This document shows positions 3,859 through 24,830 of a stretch of 42,288 nucleotides of DNA, piece by piece (within the stretch, counting starts at the first letter, position 1; every line of letters begins with the position of its first letter). The notes below the pieces were generated by a model. The model made no database searches. It was given only the letters and a program-made list of their open reading frames with translations, and was not told the DNA's origin. The DNA comes from Candidatus Falkowbacteria bacterium GW2011_GWF2_43_32 (GTDB lineage Bacteria; Patescibacteriota; Patescibacteriia; Patescibacteriales; UBA12465), in contig LCGL01000004.1 in NCBI GenBank assembly GCA_000999715.1, forward strand, positions 1 through 42,288, given 5' to 3'. Both the position numbers and the translations under genes were made by a program.

Positions 3859-6800
3859 ATGATAAAGAAAGTTAAATTTAATTTAATTCCGGTTATCATC
3901 GGTATTTTTTGGTTTCTATCGGCCTTATCTTCAGCGGCGGCCACGGCGGATAGCGCCGATGCTATCGCGGTGCGCGTTGTTCCCAATCCGGAACACTACA
4001 GTATCGGCCGTTGGTATGCCAGTCAGGGATTTTCCGGGTCGCCGCAAGCACTGGTGGTTGACGGGTATGAAGCGATTCGGGACGGACGTACGGTTTATGT
4101 CAATGCCGCCAATATCGATCCGAATACAAAAACTATTTATACGAATATTTATTTGATTTCTTATAATCAAGATCCGGCGCCCAATACCGTCGATATTTTG
4201 GGGCAAATCGTTTCTCACTGGAAATTTAACAGTAATTTGGAGGAAGGTAGCGGAGCCAAGCCTACTTGTTCTATTTCTTCGGTCAGTTGTACCGGCGATA
4301 CGGACTGCGGTGCGGAACAGATTTGCGGTACCGCAGCCGCCGGTATCGCCTCCAGTTCTTGTTTGTTAAAAACTTCGAAAAATTGTTTGGTGGACAGCGA
4401 TTGTCCGACCAATTTTTTCTGCGATAGCGTTAAAGCCAAAATTACCCGCGACGTTAAACGGCTCGGTCAGCTGGAGGATTTAAAGGAATTGTTATTCAAT
4501 TTTAAAAATGTCAACAATCATTATCCTTTATTGACTGCCGGGACCTATCTTCCCGGTAACAGCGTCTCGGTTTGGCCCAGCTGGTCGCAAGCTTTGTTGT
4601 CGGACTTGAACGCCAAACAAAATTTTATCGATCCCATTAATCGTCTTGGCGCTTGTTCCGGTTATGATTCCAAAACTTGTTGGAACGAAAATACGCGTCG
4701 TTTCGTTAACGCGCCTAGCGCCGCCAACTTGGCTTTGCCGACCGGCAGTTACGCATTCGCTTATTCCGTAGACGCCAATGGTTCTCAGTATAATTTATGC
4801 GGTGTTTTGGAGAGTCGCGAAGCGGCTTTAAATTATCGTTTTTCGCCTAACGATCCGGCCGGTTCGGCTTGTGTCACGGCCACCGGGATTACCAGCGACG
4901 GTCAAGCCGCCAATACGGCGCCGCAATTGGTCGACAAACTTTTGGTGGGCGAAGCGGCCCGGGAGTTTAACGGTTTTATCAAGGTTAAAGATGTCGAAAA
5001 TAATTCTTTATCTTGGACCATTACCAAAAGCGGCAGTTGGTCGGGTTGGCAGGGCGGGCCGGTTTTGCAAGATACCAGCAATCCCGATCAGAAAAAAATT
5101 TATGCCACCAAGACCGGCAATCCCGGAACTTATAATTTACAGTTGACCGTCTCCGATAATCAGGGAGGAGTATTGACTACTTCTACGCCCATAACCATTC
5201 TCGGATTGGCTCCGTTCGTTGAAGCGGAAAATGTGGAGTACGTCCTTAATCCCCAGGAGCCTTTTAATTACAGCTTTTTCTTTAGCGGTAGTAATCAGAG
5301 CGTTCCTCAGAATTCTTATACCGTTACCCCAACGGCCGGCCCCTTTAATTTATTGACGGCGCCCAGCATATCCAAAGTATTTTCTGTCGCCGGCGAAAAT
5401 CGTTATAAGGTAGAATATCGCGGCTTGATTTCCACGACCGCGGCGTTAACCACCGAATTTTATCAGGATACGGATTTTGCTTATCAAATTAAAGTGAATA
5501 ACAACTATCGCGCTTCCACCACCAAAAATTTTTCCATCAAAATCAAAGTAAATAATCCGTCATTGAATTTTAATTGTTCCGAAGCCGCCCGTCTTAATCA
5601 GCCTTACGTTTGCGAAATTGGCCCCACTAAACAGGGCGACGATTTAATCACTTATTCCTCTCCGAGCGGTTTGCCGCCCGGCTTAAGTTTGGTTGATGAC
5701 GCATCGGTAAAGTTTTTGCGAGGAGTGCCGACCGCCAAAACGCCCGGTCGGACAATATCCATTAAAGCCAAAAATCAATACGGCGCCTCCACTACCAAGG
5801 AATTTATTCTCAAGGTCAATACTTTTTGCGGCGATGGTATTAAGCAGTTAAATACGGAGGGCGGCGGCGGTATCTATAATGATGGCGATGAAGATTGCGA
5901 TATTAATAGTGGCGTGGCCGGTACGGTAGGCGATAGCAATGTTGCCAAACAATATGGTTGTCAAACGGTGGATGCCGACACCCCCAATCCGATTCCCAAT
6001 AATAATTACTGCGTTTTCAAATCGCCGCTGGAAGGGGGCGGGTATTGCGGCGACGGCTATTGCCAATGTCTAGCTAATCCGAAAACCGGAGCCTGCACCT
6101 GGGAGAATTGCAAGAATTGCAATACGGATTGTGCGAGCTGTACCGCGACGATAGCCTCATATGCCAAAGAAGAACAGGTAGCTTATTTTAATGGCAATCA
6201 GATATATAAAACCGGTAAAAGCGGTGTTTTGGGCGAGGCTAATGTGACGATTGCCAATGGTGATAATGTTTTTGCTTTTTGGGCGCATACCTTGTCCGCC
6301 TCCAATTATGGCTTGGCTTTTCGTTTGTTGTTAGGCCCGAAGAACGCCCCTTATGATGTGGTTGATTCTTCCAACTTTGCGTTGAAATGTGCCGTCGATC
6401 CTGAACATACTTTCGATACCGCCGACGGATTGTCCGGATCGGATTATGATCCGGCCAATGAACTTGTCAGAAGCAATTATAATTGGACACAGGTTGATTT
6501 TCCGGAATCGACCGATTTCGCTTCGTCCACCTTAACGGACAAACTCAGTGTCTTGCCGAAAATTACAGTGACTACCGGTAAAGTGACCGGTAGCCTGCCT
6601 TACGCCTGGCACCCGAACTCTAGTCAATTGGGTTTATATTGTCGCCTAAATTATTATTATGATTATGACCAGCTTGGTCGGTGCCGGCCGGCCTGCGAAG
6701 GCAAGGAATGCGGTCCGGACGGTTGCGGCAACACTTGCGGCCCGGCTTGCTCTGTCCGTTATCCTGCATATACGGCGGCTTATACGCAGTGTAAGGCCAG

Positions 6801-19111: not shown

Positions 19112-19140
19112 TTGACTGGCAGGTAAAAATTTGTTAAAAT
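19112..19140 (+). promoter_or_regulatory. Sigma70-like promoter of the nrdR-nrdD-nrdG unit
   Basis: TTGACT (19112-19117), a 17-nt spacer containing TG at 19132-19133, then TAAAAT (19135-19140). Confidence 0.6.
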
Positions 19141-19707: not shown

Positions 19708-21759
19708 ATGTCAGAAATTATCAGCCAAATAGTCAAGCGGTCCGGTGAAATCGTTGAATTTAATCAAGCGAAAATTGCTAATGCCATTCATCGAGCGGCT
19801 TTGGCCGCGGAAGTGGACGATCATCATTTGGCTAAAAAATTGGCCGATCAGGTGGTTATGAAGATCAATAAAAAATTCCACAAGAACAGCATTTTGGCCG
19901 TGGAAGAAATTCAGGATGTGGTGGAAGAGGTGTTGATCGAGAACAAATTAATCAGCATCGCCAAAGCTTATATTTTGTATCGGGAACAGCATCGTCAATT
20001 GCGCGATATCAATAAAGCGACTTCGGACGATAAGTTAATGGAAGATTATTTGGGGCGGGCGGATTGGCGCTTGAAGGAAAACAGCAACATGAGTTTTTCG
20101 GTGCAAGGCCTGAATAATTACGTGGCCTCTTCAATCTCCGCTCGTTATTGGTTGAACAAAATGTATCCGGAGAATATTCGCCAGGCGCATATCAACGGCG
20201 ATTTTCATATTCATGATTTAGGTTTGTTGGCGCCGTATTGTTGCGGTTGGGATTTAAAAGATTTATTGATACGCGGGTTTCGGGGGGTTGATGAAAAAGT
20301 GCAGAGCAATCCGCCGAAACATTTTAGAAGCGCGCTGGGCCAGATTGTTAATTTTTTCTATACGATGCAAGGCGAAGCGGCCGGGGCGCAAGCCTTTTCC
20401 AATTTTGATACCTATCTGGCGCCTTTTATTCGTTATGATGATTTGAGTTTTAAAGAGGTTAAACAGGGTTTGCAGGAGTTCATGTTCAATATTAACGTAC
20501 CGACCAGAGTCGGCTTTCAAACGCCGTTCACCAATATCACTTTGGACGTCACTCCTTCTCCGTTGACCGGAGAAGAAAATGTCATTATCGGCGGTGAAGT
20601 TCGTCCGGAAAAATATAAAGATTTTCAACAAGAAATGGACACTTTTAACGCCGCTTTTGCCGAAGTGATGCTTGACGGCGATTCCACCGGGCGGGTATTC
20701 GGTTTTCCGATTCCGACTTATAGTATAGATAAGGAATTTGATTGGGACCGAGAATCGTTGAAATCCGTTTGGGAAATGACGGCCAAATACGGTATTCCTT
20801 ATTTTTCCAATTTTGTGAATTCCGATATGCAACGCGATGATGCCCGATCCATGTGTTGTCGCCTGCGTTTGGATAACAGGGAATTGAGAAAACGCGGCGG
20901 CGGACTGTTCGGCGCCAATCCCTTAACCGGTTCGCTTGGCGTTGTAACTATTAATCTTGCTCGTATTGGTTATTTGTCAAAAAATAAAGAAGAATTTTTG
21001 GAAAGAGTGACCAAGTTAATGGAATTGGCCAAAGAGAGCCTGGAAATAAAACGTAAAATAATTGAAAAATTCACTGAAGACCGTTTGTATCCTTACTCCA
21101 TGTTTTACTTGAATGGCATCAAAGAACACTTCGGGTCTTATTGGAAAAATCATTTTTCCACTATCGGCATTAATGGCATGAACGAGGCGGTGCTTAATTT
21201 GATGGGTAAAGATTTGTCTACCGCGGAAGGTCATACTTTTGCCGCCGGCATTCTGGATTTCATGCGTGATAAATTGATGGATTTTCAAAATGAAACCAAC
21301 AGTTTATATAATTTGGAAGCCACCCCGGGCGAAGGTTGTACATATCGTTTTGCCAAGAAAGATCAACAGCTTTATCCGGGAATTATTTCCGCCAATACCG
21401 AGGCGGTTAAAGGCGGCGCCGATCCTTATTATACCAATTCCACCCATTTGCACGTTAATTTCACCGATGATATTTTTTCCGCCCTTGACCTGCAAGACGA
21501 TTTGCAAACTAAATATACCGGCGGAACGGTATTGCACGGTTATTTGGGAGAACGCTTGCCTAACGGCGCGGCCGCTAAAAAACTGGTCAAGAAAATCGTG
21601 GATAATTATCGTTTGCCGTATTTTACGATTACTCCCACTTTTTCTATTTGCCCCAAGCATGGTTATTTGGCCGGTGAACATAAATATTGTCCGAAGTGCG
21701 ACGAGGAGATCGGTTATCAGGAAAAGCAAGAAACCAGCGTCAGCGAAGCGGTCGTTTAA
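19708..21759 (+). CDS. nrdD: Anaerobic (class III) ribonucleoside-triphosphate reductase NrdD that ends before the glycyl-radical segment
   Basis: N-terminal ATP-cone (IVKRSGEIVEFNQAKIANAIH), ARSMCCRLRLD, and the C-terminal Zn site CPKH...CPKC. The ORF stops (TAA 21757-21759) 16 codons after CPKC and lacks any RxxGY-type glycyl-radical motif. Confidence 0.93.
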   Translation: MSEIISQIVKRSGEIVEFNQAKIANAIHRAALAAEVDDHHLAKKLADQVVMKINKKFHKNSILAVEEIQDVVEEVLIENKLISIAKAYILYREQHRQLRDINKATSDDKLMEDYLGRADWRLKENSNMSFSVQGLNNYVASSISARYWLNKMYPENIRQAHINGDFHIHDLGLLAPYCCGWDLKDLLIRGFRGVDEKVQSNPPKHFRSALGQIVNFFYTMQGEAAGAQAFSNFDTYLAPFIRYDDLSFKEVKQGLQEFMFNINVPTRVGFQTPFTNITLDVTPSPLTGEENVIIGGEVRPEKYKDFQQEMDTFNAAFAEVMLDGDSTGRVFGFPIPTYSIDKEFDWDRESLKSVWEMTAKYGIPYFSNFVNSDMQRDDARSMCCRLRLDNRELRKRGGGLFGANPLTGSLGVVTINLARIGYLSKNKEEFLERVTKLMELAKESLEIKRKIIEKFTEDRLYPYSMFYLNGIKEHFGSYWKNHFSTIGINGMNEAVLNLMGKDLSTAEGHTFAAGILDFMRDKLMDFQNETNSLYNLEATPGEGCTYRFAKKDQQLYPGIISANTEAVKGGADPYYTNSTHLHVNFTDDIFSALDLQDDLQTKYTGGTVLHGYLGERLPNGAAAKKLVKKIVDNYRLPYFTITPTFSICPKHGYLAGEHKYCPKCDEEIGYQEKQETSVSEAVV

Positions 21760-21797
21760 TTCATTTTTGAATTTATTAATTTATTTAATTCAAACAT

Positions 21798-21935
21798 ATG
21801 AGCCCTATTCAAACTCAGAGGCAGGAATGCATTGTTTATAGCCGCGTAGTCGGTTGGTTAACTCCGGTAAAAAGCTATAATCCCGGCAAGGCTTCGGAAT
21901 ATAAAGATCGCAAAACTTTTAAGGTTTTGTCTTAA
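21798..21935 (+). CDS. Stand-alone 45-aa ORF encoding the NrdD glycyl-radical C-terminal segment; not in the supplied ORF track
   Basis: My translation is MSPIQTQRQECIVYSRVVGWLTPVKSYNPGKASEYKDRKTFKVLS. The YSRVVG[YW]..PV...N.GK..E[YF]KDRK..F pattern is the canonical NrdD C-terminus. The ORF is in frame 3, whereas nrdD is in frame 1. It ends 9 nt before nrdG. Confidence 0.75.
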   Translation: MSPIQTQRQECIVYSRVVGWLTPVKSYNPGKASEYKDRKTFKVLS

Positions 21936-21944
21936 AATCCGTTT

Positions 21945-22681: not shown

Positions 22682-22921
22682 ATGGCGGAGACTGATAAAA
22701 CCGAGGGGGAAAAATTAGAGAGCTTATTGCGAGACAATCTTGAGAGCACCGCCAAGATTCTTAAGGATATTCGGTTTATCAAGAAGTCTCTTCGTTGGCA
22801 AAGAATTTGGAGTGTCTTTCGTTTTTTATTGATTGTAGTGCCGATTATTTTGGGATTTATCTATTTGCCGCCCCTTATTAAAGAGACGCTGGAAACTTAT
22901 CGGAATCTTTTAATCAGATAG
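22682..22921 (+). CDS. Small single-pass membrane protein (hypothetical)
   Basis: ATG start. An amphipathic N-terminus followed by the TM segment VFRFLLIVVPIILGFIYLPPL. Tightly packed between nrdG and the ATPase. Confidence 0.5.
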   Translation: MAETDKTEGEKLESLLRDNLESTAKILKDIRFIKKSLRWQRIWSVFRFLLIVVPIILGFIYLPPLIKETLETYRNLLIR

Positions 22922-22949: not shown

Positions 22950-24830
22950 ATGCAAGATATCGCTCTTTTCGCGCAAACAACCTATCGTAACGAATTTAAA
23001 AAATTCGGCATTAAAACCGACGATCGCCGTCGGCATATGTATTTGATTGGGAAAACCGGCATGGGCAAGTCCACGATTTTGGAAAATATGATCGTGGACG
23101 ACATTCGCGCCGGTCACGGCGTGGCCGTGGTTGATCCGCATGGCGATTTGGCCGAAAAAATAATTAAATTTATTCCCGACGAGAGAATTGAAGATGTGGT
23201 TTATTTTAATCCCGCGGATATTAATTTTCCGATCGCTTTCAATGTCGTGGAACAAGTTGAGCCGCATCTGCGCCATTTGGTCGCCTCCGGCTTAATCGGC
23301 GTTTTTCAAAAATTATGGGCGGATTCCTGGGGGCCTCGGTTGGAATATATTTTACGCAATGCGATTTTGGCGATTTTGGATTTTCCCGGCTCCACTATTT
23401 TGGGAGTCGTTCGCATGTTGTCCGATAAAAACTATCGCAAGCGCGTCGTCGCCAATATTAAGGATCCGGTGGTCAAAGCTTTTTGGGAAAAAGAATTCTC
23501 CGGTTATGCCGACAAGTTCGCTTCCGAGGCGGTTTCTCCCATTCAAAATAAGGTTGGCCAATTCTTATCCAGTTCTTTGATGAGAAACATCATCGGTCAA
23601 GTTAAATCGTCCATTGATATTCGGGATATCATGGATAAAGGCAGAATCTTGATTATGAATTTGTCCAAGGGGCGCATTGGCGAGGACAATTCCGCTTTGT
23701 TGGGAGCGATGATGATTACCAAAATTCAGTTGGCGGCCATGAGCCGGGTGGATGTCCCGGAAGCGGAGCGGAAAGACTTTTTTCTTTATATTGACGAGTT
23801 TCAAAATTTTTCTACCGACAGTTTCGCCAATATTTTGTCGGAAGCGCGCAAATATCGTTTGAGCTTGATATTGGCACATCAATATGTCGAACAATTGAGC
23901 GAGAAGGTCAAACCGGCCGTTTTCGGCAACGTCGGGACGATGGTGGTTTTTCGGGTCGGCGCGGCCGACGCGGAAGAGTTGGTCAGAGAATTCACGCCGA
24001 CTTTTACGGAAGAAGATATCGTTAATTTGCCGAAATATGAAATGTATTTGAAATTGATGATTGACGGCATTTCTTCTTCGCCTTTTTCCGCTCGCGGTCT
24101 GCCGCCTTTAAGTGAGGCGGAAATAACCGGCAATGCCGATAAAGTGGTTAATTATTCTCGGGATAAATACGCTTCTGTCAGAGAAGCCGTAGAAGAGAAG
24201 ATTATGCGTTGGCATGAAAATTACGGTGAAGATTTGGGGGCGGTGGCGCCGGTTGCGTTGAATGACAGAAAACCGGTCTCAGCCGTTTCCGCCGGATTGA
24301 AGTCTGTATCGCCAATGACAGCTAAGTCGCCCGTCATTAAGCCGGTCGTCATTAAGCCGACGGCAGTTCAATCGTCCGCAGTGCCGTCTTTTGCGCAATC
24401 GTCTGTGGTCAAACGTCTTGCGGCGACCCGTCCTGCGGTTAAGAGCGGTTATGACGCCGTTTGCACCAGTTGCGGTCAAGCTACAACGACTGTTTTTGTT
24501 CCGGACGGCCTTCGTCCGGTTTATTGTCGGGAATGTTTGACTAAAAAAAAAGAGGAAAAACGCCTAGAGCTTGAAGAGCGTCGTTTGGCCAAGGAGAAAG
24601 AAAAAAAGGTTTTGCAAGCCAGCTTGGCCGCGCAAGAAGTGCCGACAATTTCTCTTAATGAATTAAAAAACGTCAAACCGGTTGATTGGCGCGGACGGGA
24701 AATTAAAACCAGACCGCCGGTTCCGGAAAGTTATTCGGCGCTGAAAGATGATTATGAAGAAAAAGGTGCGTCAGCCGAACAGGAATTGTTTGAAGGAAAA
24801 GATGTCGTTATTACGGATAATGAATTTTAA
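22950..24830 (+). CDS. Soluble FtsK/HerA/T4-coupling-protein-like P-loop ATPase fused to a C-terminal CxxC-x17-CxxC zinc ribbon and a Lys/Glu-rich tail
   Basis: SD AAGGAGGGG lies upstream. Walker A is GKTGMGKST and Walker B is FFLYIDEFQNF. LILAHQYVEQL resembles the TraD/VirD4 C-terminal motif. There is no N-terminal TM segment. The zinc ribbon CTSCGQATTTVFVPDGLRPVYCREC has exactly 17 residues between the pairs (nt 24462-24536). Confidence 0.8.
   Translation: MQDIALFAQTTYRNEFKKFGIKTDDRRRHMYLIGKTGMGKSTILENMIVDDIRAGHGVAVVDPHGDLAEKIIKFIPDERIEDVVYFNPADINFPIAFNVVEQVEPHLRHLVASGLIGVFQKLWADSWGPRLEYILRNAILAILDFPGSTILGVVRMLSDKNYRKRVVANIKDPVVKAFWEKEFSGYADKFASEAVSPIQNKVGQFLSSSLMRNIIGQVKSSIDIRDIMDKGRILIMNLSKGRIGEDNSALLGAMMITKIQLAAMSRVDVPEAERKDFFLYIDEFQNFSTDSFANILSEARKYRLSLILAHQYVEQLSEKVKPAVFGNVGTMVVFRVGAADAEELVREFTPTFTEEDIVNLPKYEMYLKLMIDGISSSPFSARGLPPLSEAEITGNADKVVNYSRDKYASVREAVEEKIMRWHENYGEDLGAVAPVALNDRKPVSAVSAGLKSVSPMTAKSPVIKPVVIKPTAVQSSAVPSFAQSSVVKRLAATRPAVKSGYDAVCTSCGQATTTVFVPDGLRPVYCRECLTKKKEEKRLELEERRLAKEKEKKVLQASLAAQEVPTISLNELKNVKPVDWRGREIKTRPPVPESYSALKDDYEEKGASAEQELFEGKDVVITDNEF

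Follow-up and report, generated by a model that had tools for sequence, protein, structure and literature searches.

We uncovered a potential two-subunit form of the class III (anaerobic) ribonucleotide reductase (RNR) in a 42,288-nucleotide stretch of DNA, here called the window, from Candidatus Falkowbacteria bacterium GW2011_GWF2_43_32 (contig LCGL01000004.1, positions 1 to 42,288). In it, the nrdD gene stops shortly after its zinc-ribbon motif and the glycyl-radical loop is encoded by a separate downstream gene of 45 codons. We put the probability that this locus codes for a functional two-subunit enzyme with a trans-acting glycyl-radical subunit at about 0.8. The two genes are separate, conserved and selected, the break between them falls in a linker that is predicted to be disordered, and orphan copies of the small gene occur on phage contigs. 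The initial annotation of this DNA, made from the sequence alone, had raised such a two-piece enzyme as one possibility, alongside recoding and damage or misassembly; the profile matches, conservation, gene order and orphan copies all support this reading, the function of which we infer. The locus and its relatives present a natural class III RNR with the radical loop as a separate 5-kDa gene product, and this architecture is widespread in Patescibacteria.

Division of NrdD between two genes

The sequence profiles of the NrdD family are partitioned between the two open reading frames (ORFs) almost without overlap. The large ORF takes up positions 1-529 of 562 of the Pfam NRDD profile (PF13597; E 6e-183) and 3-654 of 684 of NCBIfam NF006126 (1029 bits against a cut-off of 548), and the small ORF continues with positions 530-562 of NRDD (E 6e-7; 28.9 bits against a cut-off of 26.2) and 649-683 of NF006126. 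NRDD is the sole Pfam match of the small ORF at E <= 0.1, and the Gly_radical domain of the pyruvate formate-lyase (PFL) type (PF01228) finds no match on it. Its product comprises a glycine hairpin, ECIVYSRVVGWLTPV, and a C-terminal helix, NPGKASEYKDRKTF, with R8, C11, Y14, S15, R16, V17, G19, P23, N28, K31, E34 and R38 invariant. A profile of its homologues aligns residues 14-42 with residues 616-645 of the T. maritima NrdD (YMRIVGYLVPV...) and also aligns with 712-738 of the P. copri NrdD, the glycine of RITGYL being matched; the radical glycine of the latter enzyme is Gly711 (PMC11226230). Hence, Gly19 is the predicted radical glycine, and the earlier identification of the small ORF as the NrdD C-terminus bearing that residue is borne out. 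A phmmer search with the 45-amino-acid (aa) peptide against the PDB sequences gave no match, whereas the profile search did.

Searches with the 45-aa sequence recovered at least 122 homologous clusters at 90% identity, all of 41-65 aa, 63-98% identical to the query and in many cases on long contigs; the top 120 matches of the profile search are all proteins of 43-69 aa. Some of these small ORFs are already present in the NCBI/JGI annotation, uninterpreted, as ‘anaerobic ribonucleoside-triphosphate reductase’ or ‘hypothetical protein’.

Judged from its sequence, the large ORF is a NrdD by all tests but one, namely that the glycyl-radical motif, RVxG[YFW], is not found on it and sits on the separate 45-aa ORF. 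It displays an ATP-cone (residues 7-96), a beta-A cysteine in YCCGW (residues 176-180, with C178 at least 90% conserved at the sequence level) and a finger-loop motif of the SMCCR class (PMC9669993), in which C384 is invariant and M382 and C383 are at least 90% conserved in the alignments of relatives. Intact relatives share its zinc motif, C-x2-[H/C]...C-x2-C; thus, the zinc site is complete within the large subunit. The ORF ends 19 codons past the last Cys of CPKC, and not 16 codons past the zinc site as had been counted before, with the tail DEEIGYQEKQETSVSEAVV. An intermolecular zinc clasp via Cys11 of the small protein was considered and set aside, because intact relatives have C-x2-H...C-x2-C on a single chain and the Cys11 position is variable, being T, C, A or S in intact relatives and Ala in the locus L087.

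In intact relatives, just 4-6 residues link the CPxC of the zinc ribbon to (E/I)VYSRVVGY; the split form replaces this link by the 19-residue tail, a stop, a spacer of 38 nucleotides (nt) and a new N-terminus of 10 residues. We joined the large and the small protein of the window into one chain and modeled it with AlphaFold2 (AF2), using an alignment with 80 rows from both intact and truncated relatives. The resulting model has a predicted local distance difference test score (pLDDT) of 92.1 and a predicted template-modeling score of 0.87, as against a pLDDT of 34 for the fused sequence without an alignment. Residues 8-45 of the small ORF (pLDDT 89-95) are placed in the barrel as in intact NrdD, with hairpin strands at 695-700 and 703-706 around Gly702 (= Gly19) and a helix at 712-720, and Foldseek relates the model with a probability of 1.00 to the NrdD structures 8p23, 9dca, 4coj and 1h79. 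By comparison, the pLDDT is ~60 at the junction (residues ~671-690), which is made up of 13 residues from the end of the large ORF and 7 from the start of the small one. In this model, the break is a disordered surface linker, at which the chain would be cuttable without disturbing the fold.

Conservation of the split and phage-borne copies of the small gene

The large ORF, run against one genome per GTDB species, yielded 245 relatives, of which the best 80 (74-88% identity, mostly metagenome-assembled genomes (MAGs) of Falkowbacteria and other Patescibacteria) were examined; 85 loci cover the region, L084 included and L034, which is cut by a contig end, left out. A look in related genomes for the same split had been proposed in the initial annotation: it is present in 85/85 covering loci, with no fused gene among them. 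The contigs that encode two of these small-ORF homologues have the order nrdR, nrdD (683 or 684 aa), small ORF and nrdG, and continue with an 89-92-aa ORF and a TraG/TrwB-like gene. In the relatives, the large ORF stops ~7-50 residues past CPKC, with an unconserved tail (the stop codon being TAA in 67, TAG in 14 and TGA in one), and the spacers are likewise unconserved and range from 11 to 201 nt (median 77.5). The small ORF lies in frame 0, 1 or 2 relative to nrdD in 35, 23 and 24 loci, respectively. In the alignment of the related loci, the Met of the small ORF is precisely where amino-acid conservation sets in, the consensus being MsPiqtqRqECiVYSRVVGWlTPvknyNpGKasEykDRkTf. Across 82 distinct nucleotide sequences, the ratio of nonsynonymous to synonymous differences per site (pN/pS) is 0.17, with pS at 0.79 near saturation: the small ORF is under purifying selection.

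Beyond these close relatives, a HMMER scan of 1.84 billion representative proteins was carried out with the large ORF, and the best 150 clusters (50% identity) were considered. About 72 of these 150 nearest NrdD clusters end ~0-44 residues past the zinc motif without a Gly motif, and about 67 are intact; the latter include eight representatives with a C-terminal glutaredoxin/NrdH-like domain after the Gly loop and two NrdD-NrdG fusions (P0172 and P0218). Inteins, recognized by LAGLIDADG or Intein_splicing matches, are frequent in the NrdD relatives (P0121-P0270), with products of 800-1879 aa that match the query in 2-4 stretches.

The gene neighborhoods of five truncated representatives show the Gly ORF in several positions. 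In L089, nrdD is followed after 90 nt by a 60-aa Gly ORF; in L093, the order is nrdD (with a LAGLIDADG intein), nrdG and a 46-aa Gly ORF; and in L090, which has a MazG/DnaB context, it is nrdD, a DUF7487 gene, nrdG and a 61-aa Gly ORF. In L087, as in L088, nrdD and thyX precede a Gly ORF that is itself broken directly after the codon of the radical Gly. The break in L087 spans ~200 nt (6453-6665), lies at the same place in L088, and matches the group I intron family RF00028 over the full model, with a score (29.6 bits, E 1e-5) that lies below the gathering score. The last nucleotide of the 5′ exon is U and that of the intron is G, and the coding sequence resumes as (Y)LRPVSQWNNGKKQEFKKRKTFKEK after the insert. 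In L092 (P0239), no small ORF is found among the called neighbors. Because the gene order is permuted (L087, L090 and L093), the small protein must be translated independently. In a rough neighbor-joining (NJ) tree of 80 barrel sequences, the window lineage belongs to a single split clade whose sister group consists of intact enzymes, and other truncated forms are spread over at least four more clades, with 12 state changes by parsimony. This sequence tree suggests that the split arose repeatedly.

We also scanned IMG/VR with the small-ORF profile and found 22 contigs (L094-L115), only one of which (L107) carries the full set of nrdD, small gene and nrdG. By tblastn, no NrdD or NrdG was found on the other 21 within flanks of ±4 to 10 kb, nor in four ±10 kb loci around P0115 in which the small ORF is present; moreover, the best 80 of the 461 viral contigs that bear NrdD include none of these 21. 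The orphan small ORFs on these phage-like contigs are 43-50 aa long. Their neighbors include genes for a collagen-like tail fiber or Phage_cement_2 protein, a Laminin_G_3 protein and tail-fiber PHROGs, often with an endolysin (Amidase_2 or Peptidase_M23) directly downstream; others lie among small early-type ORFs, with terminase and portal genes within 10 kb. That phages appear to carry the radical-bearing piece alone argues for an action in trans that is worth supplying.

Several further features of the relatives deserve mention. The hexamer TATAAT is present in 51 of 83 distinct spacers, where a first-order Markov model predicts 19.8 ± 3.7 (a statistic inflated by kinship), and its distances to the ATG cluster at 6-21 nt and 53-62 nt; in many relatives it may point to an internal promoter from which the small gene and nrdG are transcribed. 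The window has near matches only, at 21774-21789 (TATTAAT, TATTTAAT). Cysteine pairs or clusters end both pieces in several relatives (e.g., L071, L077, L070 and L085), in tails such as ..NSECC / ..ENSCC, ..DDNCGC, ..GGGCGSCGCDK and ..ENCNC, with none in the window’s own tails; from their sequence, these cysteines could tether the two pieces to each other through redox chemistry or a metal, or could shuttle reductant. In a sub-lineage made up of P0127, P0129, P0130, P0134, P0142, P0247 and L089, C-P-Y-P-H takes the place of the latter half of the zinc motif and a conserved extension, ..TEE(D/E)L(E/N)(R/K)(F/Y)G.., precedes the stop; this sub-lineage too has a separate Gly ORF, as shown by the 60-aa one of L089. 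Many species-representative MAGs with the Patescibacteria-type operon (L008, L013-L018 and others) are titled ‘uncultured Gammaproteobacteria bacterium’, which looks like a placeholder or a mislabel.

Organization of the locus and its surroundings

The genes nrdR, nrdD, the small ORF and nrdG form, with the spacer, an operon-like array (Table 1). Re-reading of the window confirmed the positions given in the initial annotation, as well as the 38-nt spacer, the 45-aa sequence, its different frame and the 9-nt gap between the small ORF and nrdG. The stop of nrdD is the TAA at 21757-21759 and that of the small ORF the TAA at 21933-21935; the latter ORF is in frame +2 relative to nrdD, and its own frame is closed upstream by the TAA at 21786-21788, so that no single frameshift joins the two. 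A scan of the spacer revealed no ORF, promoter, terminator or Rfam match, and an internal promoter or terminator in the window spacer was accordingly discarded. Two further candidates were rejected: an intron, with the gap only 38 nt long and matching no Rfam family, and a split intein, for which the flanks provide only 19 aa (the tail) and 10 aa (the N-terminal extension), with no intein Pfam match on either ORF. The absence of a Shine-Dalgarno motif before the small ORF is no objection to its translation, because such a motif is seen at only 3 of the 31 predicted genes of the window; the typical start context is ‘(A/C/T)AT ATG’, and most starts are preceded by an A/T-rich stretch ending in AT or TT. 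The product of nrdG matches TIGR02495 with E 1.3e-60 (204 bits against a cut-off of 131). The best sigma-70-like match upstream of nrdR is a possible operon promoter, going by its consensus, and nrdR keeps its position in the relatives.

Table 1. Positions in the window of the features of the split nrdD locus.
Feature	Positions	Strand	Basis or remark
Promoter candidate upstream of nrdR	19112..19140	+	Best sigma-70-like match, TTGACT-17-TAAAAT, 10/12, TG extension
nrdR, RNR-gene transcriptional repressor, 155 aa	19219..19686	+	Zn_ribbon_NrdR E 3e-20, ATP-cone E 3e-18
nrdD, large subunit, 683 aa	19708..21759	+	ATP-cone, catalytic barrel, zinc ribbon; without glycyl-radical loop
Finger-loop motif M382-C383-C384 (SMCCR)	20851..20859	+	Expected thiyl-radical site
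Zinc-ribbon motif C648-P-K-H-x10-C661-P-K-C664	21649..21699	+	Sequence, intact relatives
Large-subunit tail, 19 residues and TAA	21700..21759	+	Unconserved; pLDDT ~60
Spacer, 38 nt, AT-rich	21760..21797	.	Stops in all frames
Glycyl-radical small subunit gene, 45 aa	21798..21935	+	NRDD profile positions 530-562, homologues, pN/pS
Codon of Gly19, predicted radical glycine	21852..21854	+	Profile alignment with T. maritima and P. copri NrdD
nrdG, radical S-adenosylmethionine activase, 241 aa	21945..22670	+	TIGR02495 (NrdG2), Radical_SAM

Downstream of nrdG follow an ORF for a 79-aa predicted membrane protein (22682-22921) and a gene for a 626-aa TraG/TrwB-like ATPase with a C-terminal zinc-finger domain (22950-24830; the Pfam matches being those of the relatives’ products). 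Since ORFs of both types hold their position after nrdG in L001-L005, the neighborhood is conserved beyond the RNR genes. All but three genes of the window are on the + strand, its GC content is 44%, and its sole Rfam matches are the tRNAs Thr-CGT, Gly-CCC and Gln-TTG.

Proposed mechanism, alternative explanations and known counterparts

We propose that the two cistrons are translated separately, the small subunit from its own ATG, and that the two pieces would assemble into an active enzyme upon activation by NrdG. The latter would abstract the hydrogen of Gly19 on the small subunit, and the hairpin would sit non-covalently in the barrel beside Cys384 of the SMCCR finger loop, whereupon nucleotide reduction could proceed by the canonical single-chain NrdD route. 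It is plausible that NrdG acts on the free small subunit, because the radical domain of NrdD is mobile, being undetectable in the cryo-electron microscopy maps of the P. copri enzyme once dATP binds (PMC11226230), and because GrcA sets a precedent: the radical S-adenosylmethionine activase of its parent enzyme acts on it while it is a small protein free of that enzyme (PMC8683613).

As to why the radical loop should be separate, an adaptive reading and one that sees in the split a neutral scar are compatible. In glycyl-radical enzymes, the radical Gly is the site of cleavage by oxygen. It is conceivable, if doubtful, that the oxygen-labile radical carrier was made a cheap exchangeable part, with only the 45-aa peptide lost and replaced. 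In its fullest form, which we offer tentatively, this would make the peptide a diffusible, consumable cofactor that is charged by NrdG off the enzyme, plugs in, is sacrificed to oxygen and is swapped, with phages keeping the host RNR charged; phages with the small gene alone could in this manner resupply the host enzyme.

Several points weigh against a functional two-subunit enzyme. Its function is arrived at by inference, and only 42 kb of the genome are visible, so that another RNR or an intact nrdD elsewhere is possible. The AF2 model is of a covalent fusion and was partly guided by intact homologues, and hence speaks to compatibility and not to binding. The flanks of most of the viral contigs cover ±4 kb only, and some of the ‘truncated’ NrdD representatives may be gene fragments at contig ends. 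Moreover, the split could be the tolerated scar of a mobile element, and the idea of a replaceable part is itself a tentative one.

The neutral explanation, which we regard as a serious contender somewhat short of even odds, leaves the enzyme mechanism as proposed and differs only in the reason for the split: an inserted mobile element, later lost, would have left a gene in pieces whose break is tolerated and has no adaptive value. The nrdD genes of the relatives are indeed full of inteins (giving products of 800-1900 aa), the small gene of L087 and L088 contains a group I intron, and the DUF7487 ORF between nrdD and nrdG in L090 (353 aa, 4616-5677, in a phage-like context) may exemplify the inserted genes from which such splits arise; the several independent origins suggested by the rough NJ tree point the same way, as do the precedents of nrdA-a/nrdA-b of the phage Aeh1, split by mobE (PMC3045599), and of fragmented phage nrdD genes (PMC3653736, PMC12880540). 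However, the split has persisted in a large and old clade, in which nrdD identity goes down to 74% and synonymous sites are saturated, with 0/85 loci having reverted to a fused gene, and phages with the small gene alone are hard to explain if the piece is valueless by itself.

The other explanations fare worse. We consider it very improbable that the small protein is non-catalytic, serving as a decoy or regulator of NrdG or as a spare part for some other, intact glycyl-radical enzyme of the genome, with the large ORF inactive or using another radical source. The orphan phage copies do indicate that the peptide can be useful without a linked nrdD, and the rest of the genome is unseen; but the large subunit keeps its catalytic, allosteric and zinc motifs and yet has no radical source of its own, and the small ORF matches the NrdD C-terminus only, not PF01228, and is tightly syntenic with nrdD and nrdG in the 85 loci. 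Recoding, i.e., a ribosomal bypass or frameshift across the gap of the T4 gene 60 type that would yield a single polypeptide, is refuted by the comparative data and retains virtually no probability. A GTT precedes the nrdD stop (21754-21756) and another lies in frame at 21834-21836, which is a coincidence only: the spacer has stops in all three frames, the length (11-201 nt), sequence and relative frame of the gap are unconserved, and the first 10 residues of the small ORF, MSPIQTQRQE, are conserved even though a hop would skip them. Recoding also fails to account for the small genes that lie after nrdG or thyX in other lineages and for the orphan phage copies. An assembly or indel error, or a decayed gene, is refuted with equal firmness: its sole point in favor is the interrupted look of the gene, and the same architecture recurs in 85 independent assemblies from many projects and thus in every related genome examined, pN/pS is 0.17, and the large ORF is full length with its catalytic residues invariant.

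If functional, the enzyme would be the first glycyl-radical enzyme with the radical normally on a separate small subunit and, should the peptide be a consumable cofactor, the first ‘spare part’ system outside PFL. It would provide a simple system for the questions of how an activase reaches a glycine buried in the mature barrel and of how anaerobes deal with the cutting of the radical site by oxygen. In RNR surveys that select by length or by the C-terminal Gly motif, such nrdD genes would count as defective, and a 45-codon ORF can be overlooked or wrongly labeled by gene callers. To our knowledge, the radical glycine of every characterized glycyl-radical enzyme is part of the large catalytic chain, and GrcA/YfiD and T4 Y06I are the only trans-acting radical pieces. 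In our literature searches, which took in a 2026 review of glycyl-radical enzymes and RNR phylogeny papers, we came across no account of an NrdD glycyl-radical subunit encoded on its own. The earlier statement that no naturally split NrdD of this kind was known stands for such a subunit, with the qualification that nrdD genes in pieces are known from phages (PMC3653736, PMC12880540).

The closest functional parallel is with GrcA/YfiD of E. coli (an autonomous glycyl radical cofactor, IPR011140) and T4 Y06I, in which a separately encoded, activase-modified glycyl-radical piece restores cleaved PFL; these two PFL spare parts are the only ones that have been validated, with such parts for other glycyl-radical enzymes viewed as an open possibility by Andorfer et al. 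(PMC8683613). Like them, the protein described here is a small, separate radical-loop protein that would be the trans partner of a barrel without a working loop, and like Y06I, the phage version of GrcA, it has copies, here orphans, on phage contigs. Unlike GrcA, a homologue of the PFL C-terminus (PF01228) of ~14 kDa, it has a mass of 5 kDa and matches PF13597 only. Moreover, GrcA repairs an enzyme that has its own Gly domain, whereas the adjacent nrdD lacks one in 85/85 loci; going by the gene sequences, the small protein would hence be a regular subunit and not a repair part.

With the single-chain NrdD enzymes of T4, E. coli, T. maritima, P. copri and S. thermophilus, the split form shares the ATP-cone, the barrel, the Cys finger loop, the zinc ribbon, the RVVG[YW] radical loop and the partner NrdG; it departs from them in the replacement of the 4-6-residue link between zinc ribbon and loop by a tail, a stop, a spacer and a new start. 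A precedent for an RNR catalytic subunit in two ORFs is provided by the Aeromonas phage Aeh1, where the class Ia nrdA-a and nrdA-b are split by mobE and their products reportedly assemble into a working enzyme (PMC3045599). As in Aeh1, the two ORFs would be translated separately, to go by the conservation from the ATG and the variable gene order. Nevertheless, the Aeh1 case is of class I, comes from a phage and is restricted to a single lineage, its gap being occupied by a homing-endonuclease gene, whereas the form described here is of class III, from a cellular lineage (Patescibacteria), with no gene in the window gap, widespread, and with the radical piece as the part split off. Finally, nrdD comes in pieces in phages too, where it is split by introns, inteins or homing endonucleases (PMC3653736, PMC12880540), as in T4 (by an intron), the Lactococcus phage 949, the Aeromonas phage phiAS4, with two nrdD fragments separated by 41 nt of non-coding sequence (PMC3653736), and the Jug phages, in which the junction of 230-aa and 91-aa fragments is without RNA splicing (PMC12880540). 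Most of these breaks are mended by RNA or protein splicing or are of unknown status, and none has been described as giving rise to an autonomous glycyl-radical subunit, which is what the split nrdD of the Patescibacteria would encode.

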